51,038 nucleotides of DNA, from the NCBI GenBank assembly GCA_948525355.1, contig CAOSOP010000001.1, positions 732-51,769 of the forward strand, in the 5' to 3' direction. This DNA comes from an uncultured Bacilli bacterium (lineage in GTDB: Bacteria > Bacillota_I > Bacilli_A > RFN20 > CAG-288). The number at the start of each line of letters is the position of its first letter. The first letter of the stretch is position 1. Under the pieces are notes generated by a model. The model had not been told where the DNA came from and made no database searches. It saw only the letters and a list, made by a program, of their open reading frames with translations. Position numbers and translations under genes: made by a program. Below, piece by piece: positions 3,478 to 49,294 of this stretch.

Positions 3478-3675
3478 AATAAAAAAGGTGGACTACAGGG
3501 CGAAAACCGCGGTACCACCTGAATTTAATACTCAATTATTTACATTACGTCGTAAACACGCCTTATTACTAAGGGAGCTCAGAAGTGGTAACAGTTTTTG
3601 TGGTTGCTTTCACCTATTCAACCTCTCTGTTAATTAAAAACTATCATGTCTTCATCATAGCTCGTGCTAGGCACA
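3478..3675 (-). promoter_or_regulatory. T-box riboswitch leader of thrS (probable ACC Thr specifier) with terminator/antiterminator
   Basis: The minus strand reads AGAGAGG...GGTGAAAGC...GTTACCACTTC...AATTCAGGTGGTACCGCGGTTTTCGCCCTGTAGTCCACCTTTTTT. It has the canonical T-box sequence GGTGGTACCGCG and a terminator stem followed by a U-run just before the SD GGAGG. Confidence 0.85.
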
Positions 3676-3723: not shown

Positions 3724-3755
3724 AAAAAAATGAGCAAGGGTCGCAACCCATGCTC
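3724..3755 (-). terminator. Intrinsic terminator downstream of the toxin/immunity-like operon
   Basis: Minus strand GAGCATGGG-TTGCGA-CCCTTGCTC (9-bp stem with one mismatch) followed by TTTTTTT. Confidence 0.7.
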
Positions 3756-3891: not shown

Positions 3892-4260
3892 TTAACGAGA
3901 GTTTTCAATCCACCATTCCTTATCTTTTATAATTGTCCCTCTGATTTCTGTTATTTCTGTTCCTTCTACATCACAAAGTGGGTAGCGATAAAAATCTAGA
4001 TGTTTGAACTCATCAGAAATTATTCTTTTTGCGTAATCTTCAGTTAGGCAATCATCTATTTCTTCTTTTGTCATTAATGCTAATTCTTCTTCTTTATGTA
4101 AAGTAAGAATTTGTGGTATATCGTATCCATAGCATAAGCAGATGTATTTATTTCTTTTTTCATCATATCCTACAACTCTTAGTGCTTTAATATCAAAGAA
4201 TGGATCAGCATTCTTAATAGGGATACTGTATACGAAATCGTTTATTTTAAATTTTTTCAT
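3892..4260 (-). CDS. Small cytosolic protein, paralog 1; candidate cognate immunity protein
   Basis: 122 aa with no signal peptide. It starts 8 nt after the stop of the 440-aa secreted protein. Two close paralogs lie at 5716-6087 and 6408-6782. I recognised no family. Confidence 0.5.
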   Translation of the reverse strand: MKKFKINDFVYSIPIKNADPFFDIKALRVVGYDEKRNKYICLCYGYDIPQILTLHKEEELALMTKEEIDDCLTEDYAKRIISDEFKHLDFYRYPLCDVEGTEITEIRGTIIKDKEWWIENSR

Positions 4261-4268
4261 AGTTATAC

Positions 4269-5591
4269 CTAAAACTTCGGACTTAGTGGATGAATTTCAC
4301 CGATTCCATCATCATTTGGAGTCCAATATAATAGACCGAAGAAACTATGTGTTTTATAGTAAGGGTCATCCGTAATTCTTTTTCCAATTTCATTATAGTT
4401 ATGAAAATGTTTAAAAGCATATTTTGGAAGATCTTTTTTGATAGCACTATTATATAGATGCAAATCTGGCTTATGAGATGTATATCCAGTACCTGCATTG
4501 ATTATAAGTGATCTAGCGTTATTTTGATACCATGTATATGAACTAAAACTTTTTATGTGTGTCTTGTTTTTTATACAAAATTCTTCTGAAACTGGTGTTG
4601 CTACTGCAATGTCTATATAATCTGTTTTACATTGCTTTATTAAATATATATCATCAGTTCTCCTCACTTCGGTTATAAATGCGCATTGTGCCTCATAATC
4701 TGTTGATGCAATTCGCTTAAAGTTAAATGTAATTCCATCAATCACGCTTCTACTTGAAATAACAGATTCTTCACCTTTAGCGACTGCATCACTAAAGAAT
4801 GATGTAATCCATTTGGCAAAGGCACCGAATTGTTCGACGAACCAATCGCGAATATCATTTATTACCGATTTAATCTCATCCCAATGTTGTACAATGATTA
4901 CTGTTATTGCAATTAGTGCTCCAACCGCAAGTGCAACAGCAATTACCCAACCAACAAATGGAATCCAAGAAGATGAAAGTGCAGTTGATAAAGCAGTGAC
5001 GCATCCGTTGAATGCGCTAATAACTGTTTGTGATAAATTAGCACCTAATAAGATTGCTGATAAGCCAGAAGCGACAGCTGCACTTTGGAGTTCAATAGGA
5101 CTTCTATGAGCATATCTAGGTCTAATATTTAAATTGCGATATCTAATTTCATTAAGGGTCGCATATCTATCAAATTCGTAATTCTGTTTTCTTAACTCGA
5201 TGACCTTATTTAATTCATCAGTAGTTAATTCTGCTTCAAAATTAGCTTGATAATCATGCATAACATCTATATACTTTGGTGCAACATAATTTGCGTCAAA
5301 TTCAGGAAGAGTAATTGTTTCTTTATCTATTACATTTAAGCCTGTTATATCAATGTAATCATTAAATTCAGTACTATAGTTTTCTAATGCTTTTTCAAAT
5401 ACTTCATTTGGATCATCAGTTTCAACTATATTTCTACTAGAAGCAGCAATTCTTTTAGTCAGATTTTTGACTTTCAAAGTAATTTGATCATTAATTTCTT
5501 CTAGTTCGTTAGCAACTGCAACAGACTTCATATTTGAAGTAATTAAGAACACACTACATACAAGCGATGAAAGTAAATATTTTAGTTTCAT
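4269..5591 (-). CDS. Secreted/membrane-associated protein with His-rich C-terminal domain; candidate polymorphic toxin
   Basis: 440 aa. Sec-type signal peptide (MKLKYLLSSLVCSVFLITSNMKSVAVA). Residues ~165-235 are Gly/Ala/Ser-rich and hydrophobic (..WIPFVGWVIAVALAVGALIAITVIIV). The C-terminal ~170 aa contain FKHFHNYNE...KTHSFFG. SD AGGAGG precedes the ATG, and a small cytosolic protein gene follows immediately. Confidence 0.45.
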   Translation of the reverse strand: MKLKYLLSSLVCSVFLITSNMKSVAVANELEEINDQITLKVKNLTKRIAASSRNIVETDDPNEVFEKALENYSTEFNDYIDITGLNVIDKETITLPEFDANYVAPKYIDVMHDYQANFEAELTTDELNKVIELRKQNYEFDRYATLNEIRYRNLNIRPRYAHRSPIELQSAAVASGLSAILLGANLSQTVISAFNGCVTALSTALSSSWIPFVGWVIAVALAVGALIAITVIIVQHWDEIKSVINDIRDWFVEQFGAFAKWITSFFSDAVAKGEESVISSRSVIDGITFNFKRIASTDYEAQCAFITEVRRTDDIYLIKQCKTDYIDIAVATPVSEEFCIKNKTHIKSFSSYTWYQNNARSLIINAGTGYTSHKPDLHLYNSAIKKDLPKYAFKHFHNYNEIGKRITDDPYYKTHSFFGLLYWTPNDDGIGEIHPLSPKF

Positions 5592-5715
5592 TTTATCCTC
5601 CTATTCTTGCTTATATCTTATCATATCTTAAAGTCATGTAATAATATATTTTGTAATATGTATTAACCCATATTTCTCATTATTTCTACAAGTTTTGTTT
5701 TATAAGATATTATTT

Positions 5716-6087
5716 TTAACGACTATGTTCAATCCACCATTCCTTATCTTTTATGATTGTTCCTCTAATACGTGTTATTTCTGTTCCTTCTACATCACAA
5801 AGTGGATAGCGATAAAAATCTAGATGTTTGAACTCATCAGAAATAAGGTCTTTTGCATATTCTTCAGATATATATTCATCTATTTCTTCTTTTGTCATTA
5901 ATGCTAGTTCTTCTTCTTTATTTAGAGTTAAAAGATAGGGGATAAAGTATACATCATAATGTAAGCAAATATATTTATTTCTTTTTTCATCATAGCCTAC
6001 AACTCTCAGTGGGTATATTGATGAATTACGTGATGCTTTTCTTGACGGCACACTATATACGAAATCGTTTATTTTAAATTTTTTCAT
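5716..6087 (-). CDS. Small cytosolic protein, paralog 2; candidate orphan immunity protein
   Basis: 123 aa, roughly 75-80% identical to paralogs 1 and 3. It is preceded by the same 8-nt junction and the last codons of a toxin-like remnant. Confidence 0.5.
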   Translation of the reverse strand: MKKFKINDFVYSVPSRKASRNSSIYPLRVVGYDEKRNKYICLHYDVYFIPYLLTLNKEEELALMTKEEIDEYISEEYAKDLISDEFKHLDFYRYPLCDVEGTEITRIRGTIIKDKEWWIEHSR

Positions 6088-6095
6088 AGTTATAC

Positions 6096-6257
6096 CTAAA
6101 ACTTCGGACTTAAAGGATGAATTTCATCAATTCCATTAATAATGTTTTTTCTTGAAATAACGGATATTTCTTCTTTTGTAATTGTAATAGATCTGGCATT
6201 TGAAGTACTAAAAAAATTGCTACGTGTGAGTGATAATAGTAAATACTTTGAATTCAT
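6096..6257 (-). pseudogene. Collapsed remnant of the 440-aa toxin-like gene (53 codons)
   Basis: Minus-strand ORF MNSKYLLLSLTRSNFFSTSNARSITITKEEISVISRKNIINGIDEIHPLSPKF. It retains the SD and start, a signal-peptide-like N-terminus, a match to GEESVISSRSVIDGI and the exact C-terminal EIHPLSPKF-stop of the full gene. The upstream DNA also matches 5592-5650. Confidence 0.65.
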
Positions 6258-6407
6258 TTTTCCTCCTATGAATAATATATTTTATCATATCTTAAAGTCT
6301 AATAATAAAGTATTTTTTTATAACTACACAATTTTTGAAAACTAATACGAGAATTATTATTTTATTTTAAGGATATAAGCAGCAAGCATTACAAAATAAG
6401 ATATTTA

Positions 6408-6782
6408 TCAACGGCTATGTTCAATCCACCACTGTTTATCCTTTATAATTGTTCCTCTAATTTCTGTTATTTCTGTTCCTTCAACATCACAAAGTGGATA
6501 GCGATAAAAATCTAGATGGTTAAACTCTTCAGAAATTAGTCTTATGGCGCGTTCTTCAGTTAGGCAATCATCTATCTCTTCTTTAGTCATTAATGCTAAT
6601 TCTTCTTCTTTATGTAAAGTTAAAAAATCTGGTGAAAAATCATATACATCATAATTTAAACAAATATATTTATTTCTTTTTTCATCATATCCTACAACTC
6701 TTAGCGGGTCAATACGCAAAAACAGATCATCATTCTTAATAGGGATACTATATACGAAATCGTTTATTTTAAATTTATTCAT
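6408..6782 (-). CDS. Small cytosolic protein, paralog 3; candidate orphan immunity protein
   Basis: 124 aa. It shares blocks with paralogs 1 and 2: KFKINDFVYS, LRVVGYDEKRNKYICL, KEEELALMTKEEID, HLDFYRYPLCDVEGTEIT.IRGTIIKDK.WWIE.SR. Confidence 0.5.
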   Translation of the reverse strand: MNKFKINDFVYSIPIKNDDLFLRIDPLRVVGYDEKRNKYICLNYDVYDFSPDFLTLHKEEELALMTKEEIDDCLTEERAIRLISEEFNHLDFYRYPLCDVEGTEITEIRGTIIKDKQWWIEHSR

Positions 6783-6831
6783 TGCTTAACCTCTATAAGT
6801 ATATTTTAGCACAATAATAAATTAATGTTAC

Positions 6832-10502: not shown

Positions 10503-11630
10503 ATGAGAAAATCTGGAATCTATAAAGTTAATTTTTATGGTCATGAAGCAGAGTATAAGTCTTTTTGCCCAACAGCACTACAAAACCTAGAGTTTGAAAC
10601 TTTTGATTCATATACCACTGATCTTTTAGCAAAAGTAAATTATCAGCTTGGTATATTAAATGAACTATCGAAAAATATAAGAGGTACAGATCAGTTTTTA
10701 AGTTCTTATATTAGAAAAGAGGCATTATATAGCAGTCAAATCGAAGGGACTCAGGCAACACTTGATGATATATATAGCATTGAAAATGAAAAAGTGCTTG
10801 ATCTAGACGTTGAGGAAGTTATCAACTATGTTAAAGCAATAAAATATGCTATTAAACTACTTGATGAGCTGCCCATTTGCTCAAGATATATAAAAAATGT
10901 TCATCGAATACTAATGAATGGTGTTAGAGGTGAGAATAAAGAGCCTGGAGAGTTCAGAAAATCTCAAAACTGGATTGGTGCAGCGAACAGTTCATTAAAA
11001 GATGCAAAATATATTCCTCCTAATATCGATGATATGAATAAATGTATGGCTGATTTAGAGGAATATATAAATAGTTCAGATGATGGACTAGATATACTAG
11101 TCAAAGCTTCATTAATTCATTATCAATTTGAAACAATTCATCCTTTTCTTGATGGCAATGGTCGAATAGGAAGAATGTTAATCGTTCTATTTCTAATCAC
11201 AAAGAATAAACTGTCTAATCCATGCCTTTACATTTCTTATTTTCTTAAAAAGAATCAATTAGAGTATTATGATCGAATGTCATACGTAAGAAATAAAAAT
11301 GATTATAATCAGTGGATCAATTTTTTCTTAGAAACTATGCATAACGCAATTTTGTCTTCAATCAAATCATTAAAGGAACTGACAGGATTAAGGCAAAGGA
11401 ACAGTTTACTTATTAAAGAAAGAGATTATTGGTTATTAGATTTTCTTGAAAACAACCCTATTATCGATGCAAGAAGTGCTAGTCAAAAACTTGGTATGGA
11501 TTATTTAAAAGTTAATAGAGCAGTACATCGCTTTGTAGATTTGAAAATATTAACAATAGTTAATAAGTCGAAGAAAAGAAGACTATACATTTATAATGAT
11601 TACATGAAAATACTAAAAACAGAAGATTAA
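10503..11630 (+). CDS. Fic-family protein (AMPylase-type) with N-terminal inhibitory motif and C-terminal wHTH-like tail
   Basis: Fic motif HPFLDGNGRIGR. An N-terminal S-S-Q-I-E-G match to the [ST]xxxE[GN] alpha-inh motif. The C-terminal ~70 aa resemble a winged HTH. Confidence 0.85.
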   Translation: MRKSGIYKVNFYGHEAEYKSFCPTALQNLEFETFDSYTTDLLAKVNYQLGILNELSKNIRGTDQFLSSYIRKEALYSSQIEGTQATLDDIYSIENEKVLDLDVEEVINYVKAIKYAIKLLDELPICSRYIKNVHRILMNGVRGENKEPGEFRKSQNWIGAANSSLKDAKYIPPNIDDMNKCMADLEEYINSSDDGLDILVKASLIHYQFETIHPFLDGNGRIGRMLIVLFLITKNKLSNPCLYISYFLKKNQLEYYDRMSYVRNKNDYNQWINFFLETMHNAILSSIKSLKELTGLRQRNSLLIKERDYWLLDFLENNPIIDARSASQKLGMDYLKVNRAVHRFVDLKILTIVNKSKKRRLYIYNDYMKILKTED

Positions 11631-11818: not shown

Positions 11819-13492
11819 ATGAAGCTTAAGAAAACATTTATACCACTTGTTTTACCACTTTTAATCCTCACTTCTTGTAATGACAAAGATAGTTTCAAGT
11901 ATGAAGGTGTTATCAGTGATATAAGAGTGGCAGAAGTCGGCACTACTCATACAGTCAGTGGAGTAGTTGTAAAGCATGTCTACACCGGACAGTCGACCCC
12001 TTACATCACAGGATTTATGTTAGCTAATGAATCTGGATGTATCTACGTCTGGGGTGAAACAGTTGCCAAAACTGTAAAAGTTGGCGAAAAAGTTAAGGTT
12101 GAAGGAAAGAAAGCCTATTATGTTCCTCAAACTGATGAAGGTGCAGCAGCAGCGAGCGGATATAAAGGTCAACTCCAATTAACTAATCCAGTATTAATTG
12201 AAAATATTGGTGGAGAACATGATATTCCTTCAAAGGCGATAACGAGCATTGATAATATTAATGAAGTCACTCGTCACGCTGTAAACGATGATATATCTAA
12301 TAATATCTATCGTGCGATTGGTCGCGTAACTAAGACCATCGGTGGTGATTATACCAACTACTATTTGTATGACCGCAATAGAGAGGATGCAATTAGTTTT
12401 TATACACAGTCAAATGGTAAAGACTATGCATGGTTAGAGCCATATGTTGATAAATATGTCGATATGACATTCATCGCAATAAATGCTAAACCTGGAAATG
12501 CTTTGTGGAGAGGTTTGCCAGTATTAGTCAATGATGACTCGATTACAATCAGCAATGAAGATGAAGCAAAATACGCTGCTGAACGTGCACTAAAGACCTT
12601 GCTTGATTCTTATTCTGATGAAACAAAAGTTTCTGTTAAAAATACCGATGAACTTCTTGAAGGTGTTAAACTAAGTTATTCTTCTAAGAGTGAACTTGTC
12701 AGTATTAGTGAAACTACTGATGGATTCGATATCAACTTTAAAAAGCCAAGCACAGAAACAGAAGTTGAAGTAGAAATAACTGCTTCTTATAAAGGCGCAA
12801 GTTCAAAAGTGATTAAAAAGATAAAACTCGGTGTAGAAGTTAAACATCAAGCCATATCGATCAGTGAAGCTTTAAGCAAAGAAACTGGTACTGAAGTTAT
12901 TATCGAAGGTATTCTTTCTCGTAAGACTTATAAGAGTGGTACCGATGATCCATTAGGTGGATTTATCATTGATAGCACTGGTTCAATAGTCGTCTATAAT
13001 GATGCTCCATATATGGCAAGTTTAGCAAATGCTACTGAAGGAAATAAGGTCATGCTCAAAGGTACTATCGATAGATATATATCAACTAATACTGCTGAAA
13101 GTGGATATACTGGTGATGTCCAACTTAGAAATACTGAACTTCTATTCGTCGATGGTGCAAATAATCCTATTCCAAGTGAAGCGATAGAAGAGAAGACTGT
13201 TGAATGGATACAAAGTCAACCTGCAACCAATAATATTTCTTCAAAAGTATTTAAAGTTACAGCCAAAATAATTAAATCAACAGGTTATGCAACATCATAT
13301 AGTTTAAAGGATCCAAATAACCTCGATAAATCCTTATCAGTATACTCACAAAGAAGTGGTTCTGACTTTTCTTGGTTAGATCCATATGCTGATCAAGTGG
13401 TAACATTATATGTCGGTGTTCAAAATCTTCAATTAAGAAGTGGATCACCTAACTGGAGATGTTGCCCAATTCAAATAATAAGCGCTAATTAA
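11819..13492 (+). CDS. Lipoprotein with internally duplicated OB-fold-like modules
   Basis: Signal peptide plus lipobox LILTSC. Two repeats of a module pair, e.g. GYKGQLQLTNPVLIENIGGEHDIPSKAI versus GYTGDVQLRNTELLFVDGANNPIPSEAI, and SFYTQSNGKDYAWLEPYVDKYV versus SVYSQRSGSDFSWLDPYADQVV. Confidence 0.6.
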   Translation: MKLKKTFIPLVLPLLILTSCNDKDSFKYEGVISDIRVAEVGTTHTVSGVVVKHVYTGQSTPYITGFMLANESGCIYVWGETVAKTVKVGEKVKVEGKKAYYVPQTDEGAAAASGYKGQLQLTNPVLIENIGGEHDIPSKAITSIDNINEVTRHAVNDDISNNIYRAIGRVTKTIGGDYTNYYLYDRNREDAISFYTQSNGKDYAWLEPYVDKYVDMTFIAINAKPGNALWRGLPVLVNDDSITISNEDEAKYAAERALKTLLDSYSDETKVSVKNTDELLEGVKLSYSSKSELVSISETTDGFDINFKKPSTETEVEVEITASYKGASSKVIKKIKLGVEVKHQAISISEALSKETGTEVIIEGILSRKTYKSGTDDPLGGFIIDSTGSIVVYNDAPYMASLANATEGNKVMLKGTIDRYISTNTAESGYTGDVQLRNTELLFVDGANNPIPSEAIEEKTVEWIQSQPATNNISSKVFKVTAKIIKSTGYATSYSLKDPNNLDKSLSVYSQRSGSDFSWLDPYADQVVTLYVGVQNLQLRSGSPNWRCCPIQIISAN

Positions 13493-24712: not shown

Positions 24713-24753
24713 TAATTATTCTTCCAATTGCAATACTATTTTTGGAGGAATTT

Positions 24754-25692
24754 ATGAATATATTAACTTCAATGCTCGCCATCAGTTCTGTCTATCTCGG
24801 TGGTGATAATATTGGATTTTCACTTAAGCCTAATGGAGTGATCATAAGTGGAACATATGATGTAATATGCGATAATCATATATATAATCCGAAAAATTTT
24901 GATATTAGACCGGGTGATATAATAATATCTATAGATAATCAACCTGTCGATAGCGTCGAACTTTTAAATCAATACATTTCAAGTAGCAGTGATTTAAATG
25001 TCGACTTAACTCTCATTCGTGAAGAAAAGGAGTTGAGCAGAGAATTAAAACTTAATAAAGTTGATGGTTCATATAAGACAGGCTTATTTGTCAAGCCGTC
25101 GACCATGGGAATCGGTACATCAACTTTTTATACGATGGACAATCAATTCGCTGGACTTGGTCATCCAGTAAAGGAATTAAACACGACAGTTCCAATCATC
25201 GAGGGTAATGTTTATTATAGTTCGGTAAATGGAATAAAAAAGGCTGAGGAAGGTAAAGTTGGTGAAAAAGTCGCCTCTTTAGATGTAAATAATAAACTCG
25301 GAAGCATCTATCGCAATACAGAATTCGGCATCAGTGGTTATTATACAAGCATTCCATCAAATGCAACGCTGATTGATGTCGCTGATTTTAGTGAAATTAA
25401 AACTGGTCCTGCTAAGATGCTGACAGTAATTGATGGAGATAAGAAAGAGTATTTTGACATCAACATAACTTCAATATCAAATATGGATACCAATAATGGG
25501 TTAAAAGTAGAAATAACAGACCCACGATTGATTAAGCTAAGTGGTGGAATAGTTGCTGGAATGAGTGGTTCACCGATAGTTCAAAACAATAAACTTGTCG
25601 GGGCAATAACTCATGTCATTGTTTCTAACCCAACAAAAGGCTATGGTGTCAGCATCGATAAGATGATAAATCATCTATTCATCGAGCGTTAG
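24754..25692 (+). CDS. spoIVB: SpoIVB-type S55 serine peptidase
   Basis: YLGGDNIGFSLKPNGVIISG, a PDZ segment (GDIIISIDNQPV) and the catalytic region GIVAGMSGSPIVQNNKLVGAITHV. It follows recN as in Bacillus. I chose ATG 24754 after GGAGG. Confidence 0.8.
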   Translation: MNILTSMLAISSVYLGGDNIGFSLKPNGVIISGTYDVICDNHIYNPKNFDIRPGDIIISIDNQPVDSVELLNQYISSSSDLNVDLTLIREEKELSRELKLNKVDGSYKTGLFVKPSTMGIGTSTFYTMDNQFAGLGHPVKELNTTVPIIEGNVYYSSVNGIKKAEEGKVGEKVASLDVNNKLGSIYRNTEFGISGYYTSIPSNATLIDVADFSEIKTGPAKMLTVIDGDKKEYFDINITSISNMDTNNGLKVEITDPRLIKLSGGIVAGMSGSPIVQNNKLVGAITHVIVSNPTKGYGVSIDKMINHLFIER

Positions 25693-47287: not shown

Positions 47288-49294
47288 TTATTTATAGCAA
47301 TAATCCTCGTAGTTCTCTTCACTAAATAAATTTGTTTGATAAACAGTGTTTAGAAGCGATTGCTTGTACAAAAACTTTGAGATTCCTAAAACAATTGCAA
47401 TCTTCTCCTCTTCACTTACATTTTCAACATAGTATTTCGTGACTGAACTTAGATTTCTTGACATAAATACATTGTTAAACAGAAAACCTAATTCATAAGA
47501 ATAAATCGCATGTAATTCCTTTTTATAAGTTGGAGAAAAAATGGAACTACTTAAATAAAAGTTGTTGTTATAATCAACGCCTATTAAGTCCAAAATTGTT
47601 GGAACAATAATATGAGGCGAAGTAAAGGTTTCTGTATAATACTTAACGCCTTGCGAATTAGTGGAATTGATGGTTTTAGTCAAGTCATCATTATAAATGA
47701 CCAATTCGGTTTTATATGTTCGATAGTCTTCATGAGAATCGGTATTATAAATAAGATGTGATAATGGCACATTAGATTTACCCTGATAATAAATGTCATG
47801 ATCACCATATAAAACAAATAATGTCTTGTCAAATATTCCCATCTGCTTTAATCCATCAATCATAATTCCTAGGGCATCATCAAAGCACATACAGGCCATC
47901 ATCCAATTATCAATACAGCTTGCTTCATTATTTGGATTACCCTCAAGAGGATTAATCCACTGTCCCTGTTTTTTTATCTCGTCTAATCTTGTTCGATAAC
48001 CTGCATTAATAAGTTTTGTCGCTGTTCCTGTTTGATAACTATAGCCTCCATGCATCGATAAACTTGTCCAAAATCCATAAAATGGTTGAGGTGTATTTTT
48101 TATATAACCAATAAGTCCTGTCCCTTTTTGATAATCACCCATCGTCACTGTATCCAATGTGTAATTATCCCAATCCCATGGAGACTCGTTTGGTGTTAAA
48201 TCTTCAAAGAAATATGTTTTATCAAAACCAAAGTTACTCATAAAAGTATTACGACGATATATGTCTTTGCTCTTTGGAACTGAGTGAGCATAGAAAGAAG
48301 TATACCCCCCCAATTTCACTAAATTTGGTATTGCAAAAGGAAACCCATAGTCGGTCTTTGAAAAATCAAATAAGTCAGTAGAATAACTACCAAGTATTCC
48401 TATTATTTCAGATATATTAGTTTTATTCTTCACATAGTTATTTTCAAATCTTAAACCATTAGAAGCAAAACTATATAGATTTGGCGTAGTAAATTCATTA
48501 ATCATTGAATACGCACCTGTTTCAACCATTATTTCAATTACATTATAATCATTAAGTAAACCAGTGAATGCGTTCTTAGTATCAACCTTACTGCTAAAGA
48601 AACTACGTAACATGTCTTTTCCCATATATGTTTTTCCTGGAAGTATCTCTTTTGCGTAATAAGTCAATGGACCAAATAAACTATAATTATTACTTCTTGC
48701 TAATGAGACCATTCCTGCTGAAAGATTATTCCTATTTTTTACTTCATAATTTGTTGTTAAATAGTTAGATAAAGAAAAGCTACCGACAGAAGATATAGTT
48801 ATTGCTAAGAAAAGACATAGGCGAGTTAATATATCTTTTTTCTTCTCTTCTTTATTAGTCTTCTGATCAACACGCACAAAAATTCTAAATAAGACTAGTG
48901 TGGTAACAAACACTAAGAAAAACACAATGGCTAAAGCAATCAGATGTGGTTTCAAATAAGAAATTGAAAAGAGATTTAGTCCCTCACCTAAATAATTTAT
49001 ATATGACAGTGAGAAAACATCGCCAAATAAAATATAATAGTGAGCATTAAAAACAAAAATAAAATCTAATGCAAAATAAATAGCGGATAAATAAATAATA
49101 TCAACTATTCTGTTTTTCCAAAATAATATCGGTAATGAAAAAAGCAGCAGGATAAATATATCACAAAAGAAATAATTATAAATCTTTGAAAACATAATAA
49201 TTGAAAATGTCCACTCTGCTATTAAAGCATAGAGCAGGAAGATCAAAATTTGTATTATTTTATATTTAAATAACTTTCCTAGCTTCATAAACAT
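47288..49294 (-). CDS. LtaS-like sulfatase-family membrane enzyme (lipoteichoic acid synthase / phosphoglycerol transferase family)
   Basis: 668 aa with about 5 N-terminal TM helices, then an extracellular sulfatase-like domain (IEIMVETGAYS, SMHGGY, VLYGDHD). Confidence 0.65.
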   Translation of the reverse strand: MFMKLGKLFKYKIIQILIFLLYALIAEWTFSIIMFSKIYNYFFCDIFILLLFSLPILFWKNRIVDIIYLSAIYFALDFIFVFNAHYYILFGDVFSLSYINYLGEGLNLFSISYLKPHLIALAIVFFLVFVTTLVLFRIFVRVDQKTNKEEKKKDILTRLCLFLAITISSVGSFSLSNYLTTNYEVKNRNNLSAGMVSLARSNNYSLFGPLTYYAKEILPGKTYMGKDMLRSFFSSKVDTKNAFTGLLNDYNVIEIMVETGAYSMINEFTTPNLYSFASNGLRFENNYVKNKTNISEIIGILGSYSTDLFDFSKTDYGFPFAIPNLVKLGGYTSFYAHSVPKSKDIYRRNTFMSNFGFDKTYFFEDLTPNESPWDWDNYTLDTVTMGDYQKGTGLIGYIKNTPQPFYGFWTSLSMHGGYSYQTGTATKLINAGYRTRLDEIKKQGQWINPLEGNPNNEASCIDNWMMACMCFDDALGIMIDGLKQMGIFDKTLFVLYGDHDIYYQGKSNVPLSHLIYNTDSHEDYRTYKTELVIYNDDLTKTINSTNSQGVKYYTETFTSPHIIVPTILDLIGVDYNNNFYLSSSIFSPTYKKELHAIYSYELGFLFNNVFMSRNLSSVTKYYVENVSEEEKIAIVLGISKFLYKQSLLNTVYQTNLFSEENYEDYCYK

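Follow-up and report, generated by a model that had tools for sequence, protein, structure and literature searches.

What kind of system is built from five neighbouring open reading frames (ORFs) that yield only sub-threshold noise (ThrE, Spc25, DUF7167, an L25 fragment) in searches against Pfam, NCBIfam and the protein sequences of the PDB? This question is raised by positions 3,892 to 6,782 of a stretch of 51,038 nucleotides (nt) from an uncultured Bacilli bacterium (assembly GCA_948525355.1, contig CAOSOP010000001.1, positions 732 to 51,769), here called the window. Its minus strand carries an array consisting of a gene for a protein of 440 amino acids (aa), the remnant of a second such gene and three genes for small proteins, S1 to S3. 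We regard the array as what is probably a two-gene polymorphic toxin/immunity cassette, accompanied by two additional immunity paralogs and a second toxin copy that has decayed. A preliminary description had arrived at a toxin/immunity reading; comparative evidence, namely gene adjacency, co-variation, exchange of C-termini, orphans and stubs, and recombination in a sister strain, argues for it.

Read along the minus strand, to which all array coordinates refer, the order is S3 (6408-6782; 124 aa), a stub of 53 codons (6096-6257), S2 (5716-6087; 123 aa), the gene of the 440-aa protein, our putative toxin gene (4269-5591), and S1 (3892-4260; 122 aa). All ORFs lie where they had been placed before. 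S1 starts 8 nt past the stop codon of the 440-aa gene and S2 8 nt past that of the stub, each preceded by an AGGT ribosome-binding site. S1 is read as the cognate immunity gene, S2 and S3 as orphan immunity paralogs of the same type (type A); directly upstream of S3, no toxin gene is found. The small genes are true paralogs, as had been proposed: they make up the repeat families D1 and D2 with three copies each (76-85% nt identity), and their products are 79-84% identical (84% for S3 versus S1, 79% for S2 versus S1). With pairwise dS values of 0.47-0.66 and dN/dS ratios of 0.22-0.26 (0.22 for S3 versus S1, 0.26 for S2) they are old duplicates under purifying selection, and thus neither chance ORFs nor assembly artefacts. 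The stub, previously taken for a remnant of the large gene, keeps a signal-peptide-like N-terminus, a fragment corresponding to residues ~273-289 of the 440-aa protein (repeat D4; 4731-4778 versus 6129-6176, 77%) and the last 10 residues, and it has in common with the 440-aa gene the 3' end encoding IHPLSPKF plus the sequence of the junction to the small gene. Judged by these alignments, it arose by deletion from a second full-length toxin gene, formerly located in front of S2.

In the 440-aa protein, a signal peptide (codons 1-27; 5511..5591) is followed by an acidic, all-helical and well conserved pre-toxin domain (codons 56-160; 5112..5426), a strongly hydrophobic module resembling phage tape-measure proteins (codons 161-276; 4764..5111) and an alpha/beta domain, the putative toxin domain of type A (codons 277-440; 4272..4763), which is delimited by alignments, the structure model and co-variation. 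This agrees with the layout recognised before: signal peptide, polar region, hydrophobic segment and a C-terminal domain with a His cluster. Sixty-four close homologs of 432-490 aa were found, and the family profile gave 190 matches among 1.8 billion representatives; none of these proteins is annotated. The hosts are uncultured gut metagenome-assembled genomes (MAGs) labelled Bacilli, Bacillales, 'Mollicutes', Candidatus Onthovivens, Coprobacillus or Erysipelotrichaceae, while a few bins are labelled otherwise (E. coli, Bacteroides uniformis, Lachnospiraceae, Hallerella), and so far the family is confined to uncultured gut Bacilli. One full-length homolog (P0062) is labelled as belonging to the gut archaeon Methanosphaera sp., reflecting either a cross-domain transfer or a binning error. 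The distribution is patchy and island-like, with flanking genes that vary from locus to locus.

Two properties of these loci carry our interpretation. A small cytosolic partner ORF lies directly downstream, at a distance of 2-30 nt, in every homolog locus examined, and no neighbour other than such partners recurs in 20 loci. Moreover, the last ~165 residues of the large protein fall into at least six C-terminal subtypes, and each comes with its own type of downstream partner. S1-type partners occur 3' of type-A toxins elsewhere. For 15 loci (105 pairs) we compared the similarities of the individual parts by Spearman correlation and Mantel tests with 5000 permutations. The C-terminus correlates with the partner (Spearman 0.67; 0 of 5000 permutations reach the observed r), but the N-terminal region does not (Spearman -0.10; 4035 of 5000), and N-terminal region and C-terminus are likewise hardly correlated (Spearman 0.11). 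Mean normalised conservation scores are 0.53 for the N-terminal region, 0.27 for the C-terminus and 0.10 for the partner. Since the partners co-vary with the C-terminus and not with the N-terminus, C-terminus and partner are exchanged as a unit on a conserved N-terminal chassis.

The exchange extends to distant relatives, which keep the signal peptide (or a lipobox), the acidic domain and the tape-measure-like module and end in unrelated C-termini. In the family as a whole, at least three C-terminal classes are unrelated to one another. From 118 proteins with the module we obtained 13 C-terminal BLAST clusters: 94 proteins carry the HxH...H type found in the window, 10 belong to a second, unrelated class, four to a third cluster, and 10 are singletons. 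The third cluster was nevertheless placed in the HxH...H superfamily, because its members keep the invariant residues in a multiple alignment; among the singletons, three have the HxH...H motif and two (P0197 and P0200) are themselves tape-measure-like proteins. In the second class, P0140 is followed by two tandem paralogous cytosolic proteins of 261 and 276 aa rather than by the ~120-aa type. A 332-aa relative in locus L026 (284-1282) has the same hydrophobic module and a different C-terminus (…GQAPKEVDRVDPAHNQYGQPYVHFKDGTSLNRDGTIHD…), and overlaps with a downstream ORF of 135 aa (1269-1676); neither gave a Pfam or PDB sequence match. The same holds for the C-termini of the P0098/P0140/P0130 class, of P0139/P0146 and of P0123, so that a swap onto a toxin domain already known could not be demonstrated. 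Two chimeras were also noted, a Big_2 lipoprotein that has the final ~70 residues of the type-A C-terminal domain at its end (P0136) and a ribonucleotide-reductase barrel followed by a fragment of this domain (P0129); both are probably products of recombination or stub fusion.

Orphan partners and C-terminal stubs occur in L023, L024, L021, L016, L020 and L009. In L023, an intact toxin and its partner are followed by a type-A stub with a type-A partner, another partner, and a type-B stub with partner, which makes two stubs and three extra partners; L024, L021, L016 and L020 have extra partners, some of a type not matching the resident toxin, and in L009 (7254-8024) two type-A small proteins are fused to a single 256-aa ORF 3' of the toxin gene. 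How such arrays change can be seen in a sister strain (L027; GCA_948811405.1), which is 96-99% identical to the window and lacks exactly one 692-bp unit, comprising the stub and one small gene. The small gene at its S3 position is a chimera of S3 and S2. Deletion and chimera together show recombination between tandem paralogs. In four loci, homologs of the large gene are frameshifted (L014 2839-4220, L019 6001-7280, L024 6001-7376 and L025 6001-7419; L014 and L025 stem from the same MAG). The frameshifts lie at differing positions in or near the hydrophobic module, and these copies are either pseudogenes, the toxin being lost and the immunity kept, or MAG assembly errors.

The signal peptide is of the Sec type by sequence (MKLK, a hydrophobic core and VAVA before NE), has a net charge of +3 and a grand average of hydropathicity of 1.18, and would be cleaved between VAVA and NE upon export via the Sec pathway. 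A basic N-terminus with a hydrophobic h-region is present in 57 of 60 full-length family members; in some distant ones a lipobox takes its place. The acidic domain, with an isoelectric point (pI) of 4.3 and a median net charge of -12 across the family, has no Pfam match. An AlphaFold2 (AF2) model of the 440-aa protein, built on an alignment of 59 sequences, reached a mean predicted local distance difference test score (pLDDT) of 86 and a predicted template modelling score (pTM) of 0.80, with signal peptide and linker disordered. Before residue 278 the model contains helices only: those of the acidic domain (61-79, 107-121, 124-136 and 138-148; pLDDT ~90), three hydrophobic ones (168-183, 188-207 and 215-235) and amphipathic ones (237-275); the alpha/beta domain spans residues 278-440. 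Foldseek searches with the full-length model against PDB and BFVD gave spurious helical matches throughout (best E-values 1.1 and 0.49).

In the preliminary description the hydrophobic segment had been considered unassignable, and here our results lead to a different view. Residues ~170-290 of the window protein match PHROG families of phage tape-measure proteins (PHROGs 8462, 28, 1535, 4200 and 1272) and no others (E = 2.7e-8 to 4e-4), and the same was observed for seven relatives with different C-termini. The module is made up of two helices with small-xxx-small motifs, a strong transmembrane (TM) helix, an NWDxIK junction and two amphipathic W/F helices. Nine overlapping small-xxx-small-xxx-small motifs are present, and the Gly/Ala/Ser-rich segment contains one very hydrophobic helix (peak of 3.1 at ~201-240 in a 19-residue Kyte-Doolittle window). 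Tape-measure proteins with PF10145 were also retrieved by the family profile, and a profile of the module aligned to them with ~41 bits. This alignment runs from the Gly/Ala/Ser-rich helix through the TM helix and the NWDxIK junction to the W/F amphipathic helices, of which the last re-matches the W/F repeats of the tape-measure proteins. Extent of the alignment and re-matching of the repeats argue that the likeness exceeds shared composition. By these profile alignments, the module is a homolog of a membrane-associated segment located inside phage tape-measure proteins.

The C-terminal domain, modelled with pLDDT values above 90, carries the sequence FKHFHNY...THSFFG. Six residues, Y352, A359, H395, H397, H415 and G419, are invariant in type A and across C-terminal subtypes. 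Alignments place the domain in a new superfamily marked by an invariant HxH...H cluster; the domain would represent the toxic part, perhaps a histidine- or metal-dependent hydrolase. In the AF2 model, H395 and H397 lie on one strand and H415 on the adjacent strand, and together they could form the active site. That neither this domain nor the small protein matches a named family was borne out: Pfam, NCBIfam, PDB sequences and Foldseek gave no match for the domain, and a profile of the superfamily found nothing among PDB sequences even at E = 10. The HxH...HSFFG pattern was compared with HNH/EndoVII (DHxH), LAS peptidases (HxxxD plus HxH), HIT proteins (HxHxH), alpha-carbonic anhydrases (HxH...H) and EndoU (EHVFxGE...FHNW, in the opposite order here). 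No search or fold comparison supported any of these candidates, and so no activity was assigned to the domain.

S1 is acidic (pI 5.0), and all three small proteins are cytosolic without a hydrophobic segment. In the AF2 model of S1 (pLDDT 77), the first ~63 aa form a barrel of the SH3/Tudor/KOW kind. Fold searches returned generic barrels of these types only (probability near 1.0, E = 0.004-0.1), none below E = 1e-3. The small protein is variable in patches at aa 13-27, 43-54 and 71-83.

Taken together, we propose that the 440-aa protein is exported by Sec via its cleavable signal peptide and that its fast-evolving, exchangeable C-terminal domain is the toxic part, presumably a hydrolase acting on a cytoplasmic target. 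The target would be cytoplasmic because the partners have neither an export signal nor a TM segment. S1 would bind and block the C-terminal domain, as the co-variation suggests, while S2 and S3 may be orphan immunity genes kept to resist variant toxins of related strains; the array changes by homologous recombination between its tandem paralogs. The tape-measure-like module might anchor the protein in the producer membrane or, after release, insert into the membrane of the target and help to carry the C-terminal domain across. During DNA injection, tape-measure proteins presumably pass into the membrane of the host. A parallel is found in Tde1, an effector of a type VI secretion system (T6SS) whose tape-measure-like glycine-zipper segment is needed to cross the cytoplasmic membrane of the target (PMC10240207). 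It is an attractive, though rather doubtful, extension of this idea that the module acts as an autonomous protein-translocation device requiring no protease, receptor-specific translocon or secretion machine; if true, a phage DNA-injection element would have been turned into a toxin-injection element. Packaging of the protein into phage tails by means of this segment was rejected because a signal peptide is present.

Several observations weigh against the proposed cassette. The C-terminal domain resembles no known toxin, enzyme or fold, which makes its activity a guess. Many polymorphic toxin domains are shared between secretion routes, yet among the best 150 of the 190 matches the C-terminal superfamily is never fused to LXG, Rhs, CdiA or other trafficking domains. 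Displaced modules of C-terminus and immunity gene are located downstream in contact-dependent growth inhibition (CDI) and Rhs loci; here the intact gene has its orphans upstream, and these share a single immunity type, so that the array looks like a tandem cassette duplication followed by loss of a toxin copy. The domain is also not strongly cationic, unlike the toxins of the ABP system (PMC13460014). The last point concerns topology. A strongly hydrophobic helix of 21 residues is normally a stop-transfer anchor, and the C-terminal domain might therefore stay in the producer cytoplasm, which would fit a self-directed toxin-antitoxin as well as delivery. The protein could have such a single anchor, with the toxin domain in the producer cytoplasm, or it could adopt a hairpin or shielded state, with the toxin domain outside and available for insertion into a target. 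The flanking charges do not decide between these two topologies.

It is from this last point that the main rival to our proposal arises, namely a membrane-anchored toxin-antitoxin or abortive-infection module acting on its own cell, which we consider unlikely, if less so than the alternatives below. The protein would be oriented N-out/C-in, the small protein would hold the toxin in the producer cytoplasm, and an envelope event, e.g. a phage tape-measure protein moving into the membrane alongside the segment homologous to it, would free the toxin and stop the infected cell. Such a module would account for a very hydrophobic helix placed after an exported domain (the classic stop-transfer layout), for a partner that is cytosolic and translationally coupled, and for the homology to the tape-measure membrane segment; some loci also have restriction/GmrSD genes (L004), serine recombinases (L030) or a degraded prophage (L031) as neighbours. 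Whole C-terminus/partner cassettes that are swapped on a conserved exported N-terminus are, however, the pattern of polymorphic toxins, and antitoxin-only orphans under purifying selection, together with stubs, are what is expected of a defence against incoming toxins. Most loci, including that of the window, lie among housekeeping genes, and PADLOC gave no meaningful match: weak ones to LeoBC (E = 2e-4 to 2e-5) are due to the TM region, and the small protein had none. Co-variation also bears on the idea, which we hold to be improbable, that the hydrophobic glycine-zipper-like module itself is toxic by depolarisation or pore formation, the C-terminus serving in targeting or receptor binding and the small protein keeping the protein inactive before export. 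What the small proteins co-vary with is the C-terminal domain, not the module; an invariant HxH...H/Y set across very divergent C-termini looks less like a variable surface for binding than like an active or metal site; and immunity proteins against pore-formers are usually membrane proteins, whereas the partners here lack hydrophobic segments. What speaks for this idea are the many small-xxx-small motifs and the single strong TM helix in what is the most conserved part of the protein, the inhibition of growth by Tde1's zipper region alone (PMC10240207), and the glycine-zipper membrane toxins of type VII secretion systems (T7SSs) with cytoplasmic immunity, such as EsxX, that are reported in PMC12744356.

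Export signal, membrane anchor and a His cluster compatible with a metallo-hydrolase, together with the failure to detect a known toxin domain, would suit an enzyme anchored at the surface, such as a hydrolase that remodels the envelope, which would come with its own chaperone or regulator and have been duplicated by chance. This seems quite improbable to us, for it leaves unexplained why unrelated C-termini are swapped along with matching partners, why there are orphans and stubs, why partner and C-terminus diverge so fast relative to the N-terminus, and why the distribution is patchy and island-like. Hardly credible, finally, is a prophage remnant made of a truncated tape-measure gene and leftover small phage genes. 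Tape-measure families are admittedly the only ones to match the protein, and two IMG/VR contigs harbour relatives. The first (L031, 1-8269) has the cassette next to an amidoligase, a gamma-glutamyl cyclotransferase, a large terminase and a portal fragment of a degraded prophage, the second (L030, 1-10892) next to a DNA methyltransferase and two serine recombinases; the cassette is thus sometimes cargo of mobile or degraded phage elements. The match spans only ~110 residues, however, a signal peptide is present, and the full-length architecture is conserved in ~100 genomes; tblastn detected nothing in 50,697 phage genomes or 72,556 plasmids, and no phage genes surround the array in the window.

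Our preferred reading, the polymorphic toxin/immunity cassette, also has to be seen in its genomic setting. A promoter-like site 5' of S3 (6803..6831, minus strand; GTAACA, 17 nt, TAAAAT plus TG extension), a consensus match only, lies just past the hairpin that ends a ROK kinase gene. The promoter/leader region of the 440-aa gene (5612..5658), which has a GGAGG ribosome-binding site 5 nt before the ATG, is the reference copy of repeat D3; its duplicate lies 5' of the stub (6272..6322; 83% identity between 5612-5658 and 6276-6322), where a consensus scan found a promoter-like TAGACT...TATATT at 6301-6274 and where GGAGG likewise precedes the ATG. At the other end of the array a terminator had been predicted. 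RNA folding supports a GC-rich hairpin followed by U7 at ~3724-3755 (-20.6 kcal/mol, z = -2.2), a probable intrinsic terminator, but a strict consensus scan did not call it. It is located between S1 and a T-box leader 5' of thrS (3493-3667, minus strand; 66 bits, E = 2.5e-13, below the Rfam gathering score of 93), so that the array is inserted just 5' of a housekeeping gene under riboswitch control. With thrS on one side and the glk-pyk-pfk genes on the other, it is embedded in a housekeeping environment (rsmH, thrS, ROK kinase, pyk, pfk, Tex, xseA, dxs, recN, an XerC/D-type recombinase, gyrase/topoisomerase IV subunits, EF-P and an LtaS-like sulfatase). Components of T7SS, LXG, Rhs or CdiB systems, stated before to be lacking in the window, were indeed not found when its 30 larger ORFs were scanned against Pfam, nor does it contain an ORF of EssC length. 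No protease gene was seen in the surroundings of the array either.

Some further genes are worth recording. At ~3.7 kb from the array, the window has a Fic/DOC-family gene (10503-11630, plus strand), followed by a 557-aa ORF (11819-13492, plus strand) without a Pfam match; a Fic-like gene likewise lies near the toxin locus in L018. The LtaS-like sulfatase is encoded at 47288-49294 and a SpoIVB-like peptidase at 24742-25692. In L005 (1050-5073), a cell-division cluster has the order mraZ-rsmH-(two small ORFs)-ftsA-ftsZ; mur and pbp genes are missing between them, an arrangement known from wall-less Mollicutes. Any model of delivery has to take the hosts' type of envelope into account. In one sub-lineage only, a small membrane ORF with HExxH (LIQHEYGHT) is situated directly 5' of the toxin gene (L005 5606-5941, L013 5543-5929, L021 5661-5888 and L031 5502-5888). 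It could be a processing peptidase specific to this branch; as a third core component it was rejected, being absent from the window and from most loci.

How does the cassette compare with known systems? According to the 2012 survey of polymorphic toxins (PMC3482391), such systems join a conserved N-terminal region to diverse, exchangeable C-terminal domains, have a downstream immunity-type gene specific to the C-terminal type, and are accompanied by orphan immunity-type genes and standalone stubs; all of this was found here, the last in the window as well as in other loci. Sec is the commonest export route of these toxins, and a tape-measure-like pre-toxin module is not mentioned in that survey. 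The association with polymorphic toxin loci made in the preliminary description is supported, but the arrangement is nearer to T7SS immunity strings than to the displaced modules of CDI and Rhs loci. According to PMC9484751, the esaG and tsaI genes of Firmicutes form strings of tandem, non-identical paralogs that expand and contract by homologous recombination, and the same expansion and contraction is seen between the window and L027. Unlike in these strings, the toxin here has a signal peptide(-like) N-terminus and no LXG/WXG domain (no Pfam LXG match), and the window holds no T7SS domain or gene in the vicinity. WapA/WapI of Bacillus and Streptococcus and MafB/MafI of Neisseria, which are Sec-dependent, resemble our system in that a signal peptide and a conserved N-terminal part precede a variable C-terminal toxin, with the immunity gene adjacent and orphan modules present. 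The 440-aa protein is, however, much shorter and bears a TM module, and the hallmarks of the CDI, Rhs, WapA and MafB types (two-partner secretion domain, filamentous haemagglutinin repeats and CdiB; YD/Rhs or wall-binding repeats; DUF1020) were absent by Pfam or NCBIfam.

With tape-measure proteins the family shares the Gly/Ala/Ser-rich helix, the TM helix, the NWDxIK junction and W/F-periodic helices that can be aligned, but only ~110 of 440 residues match, the protein is far shorter and has a signal peptide, no tail genes are nearby and PF10145 was not detected on it. From these alignments, the module is a homolog of tape-measure proteins, the 440-aa protein itself not being one. Colicins and the T domain of diphtheria toxin illustrate how an enzymatic domain can be delivered by a secreted multi-domain toxin whose hydrophobic helical element goes into the membrane of the target; a further likeness is the acidic immunity protein in the cytoplasm, whereas domain order and release mechanism differ, and no similarity in sequence or fold was found. 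Tde1 of Agrobacterium combines a hydrophobic, tape-measure-like small-xxx-small segment with an enzymatic toxin domain and a cytoplasmic immunity protein; it differs in its delivery by T6SS and adaptor, the lack of a signal peptide, the N-terminal position of the zipper and its Ntox15 DNase domain (PMC10240207).

Sec-exported polymorphic toxins with cytoplasmic immunity have been described in Gram-positives (PMC9424270, PMC13460014), and this ABP/S8-PTS system (AbpT toxin, AbpP protease, AbpI immunity) is the closest Gram-positive analogue. In both, a Sec signal peptide and a conserved pre-toxin region precede polymorphic C-terminal toxin domains, a cytoplasmic immunity gene adjoins, a dedicated secretion machine is absent and a membrane-active helical element is proposed for entry. 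In contrast, no S8 protease (AbpP) is adjacent in any of the 20 loci (the neighbours in the window being thrS, ROK kinase and pyk), the N-terminal domain is all-helical instead of BetaH (a central helix surrounded by a beta-sheet), a strongly hydrophobic, tape-measure-like TM module takes the place of the cationic amphipathic helix as membrane element, the C-terminal domain is near neutral instead of highly cationic, and none of the 16 ABP toxin domains was found by Pfam. Since AbpP and BetaH are absent and the toxin domain is not cationic, we do not count the window system among the ABP/S8-PTS members. New are the chassis of acidic helical domain and tape-measure-like module, the HxH...H superfamily of putative toxin domains, several further C-terminal classes and several immunity families; none of the parts was found described in the searchable literature, and all come from uncultured gut Bacilli with reduced genomes. 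How toxins enter Gram-positive targets without a dedicated injection machine has been stated as an open question for the ABP toxins (PMC13460014). Next to that system, the present one is a compact two-gene counterpart with a candidate entry element recognisably related to the membrane segment of phage tape-measure proteins, and this link offers a concrete, testable handle on the entry of Sec-exported toxins into Gram-positive cells.

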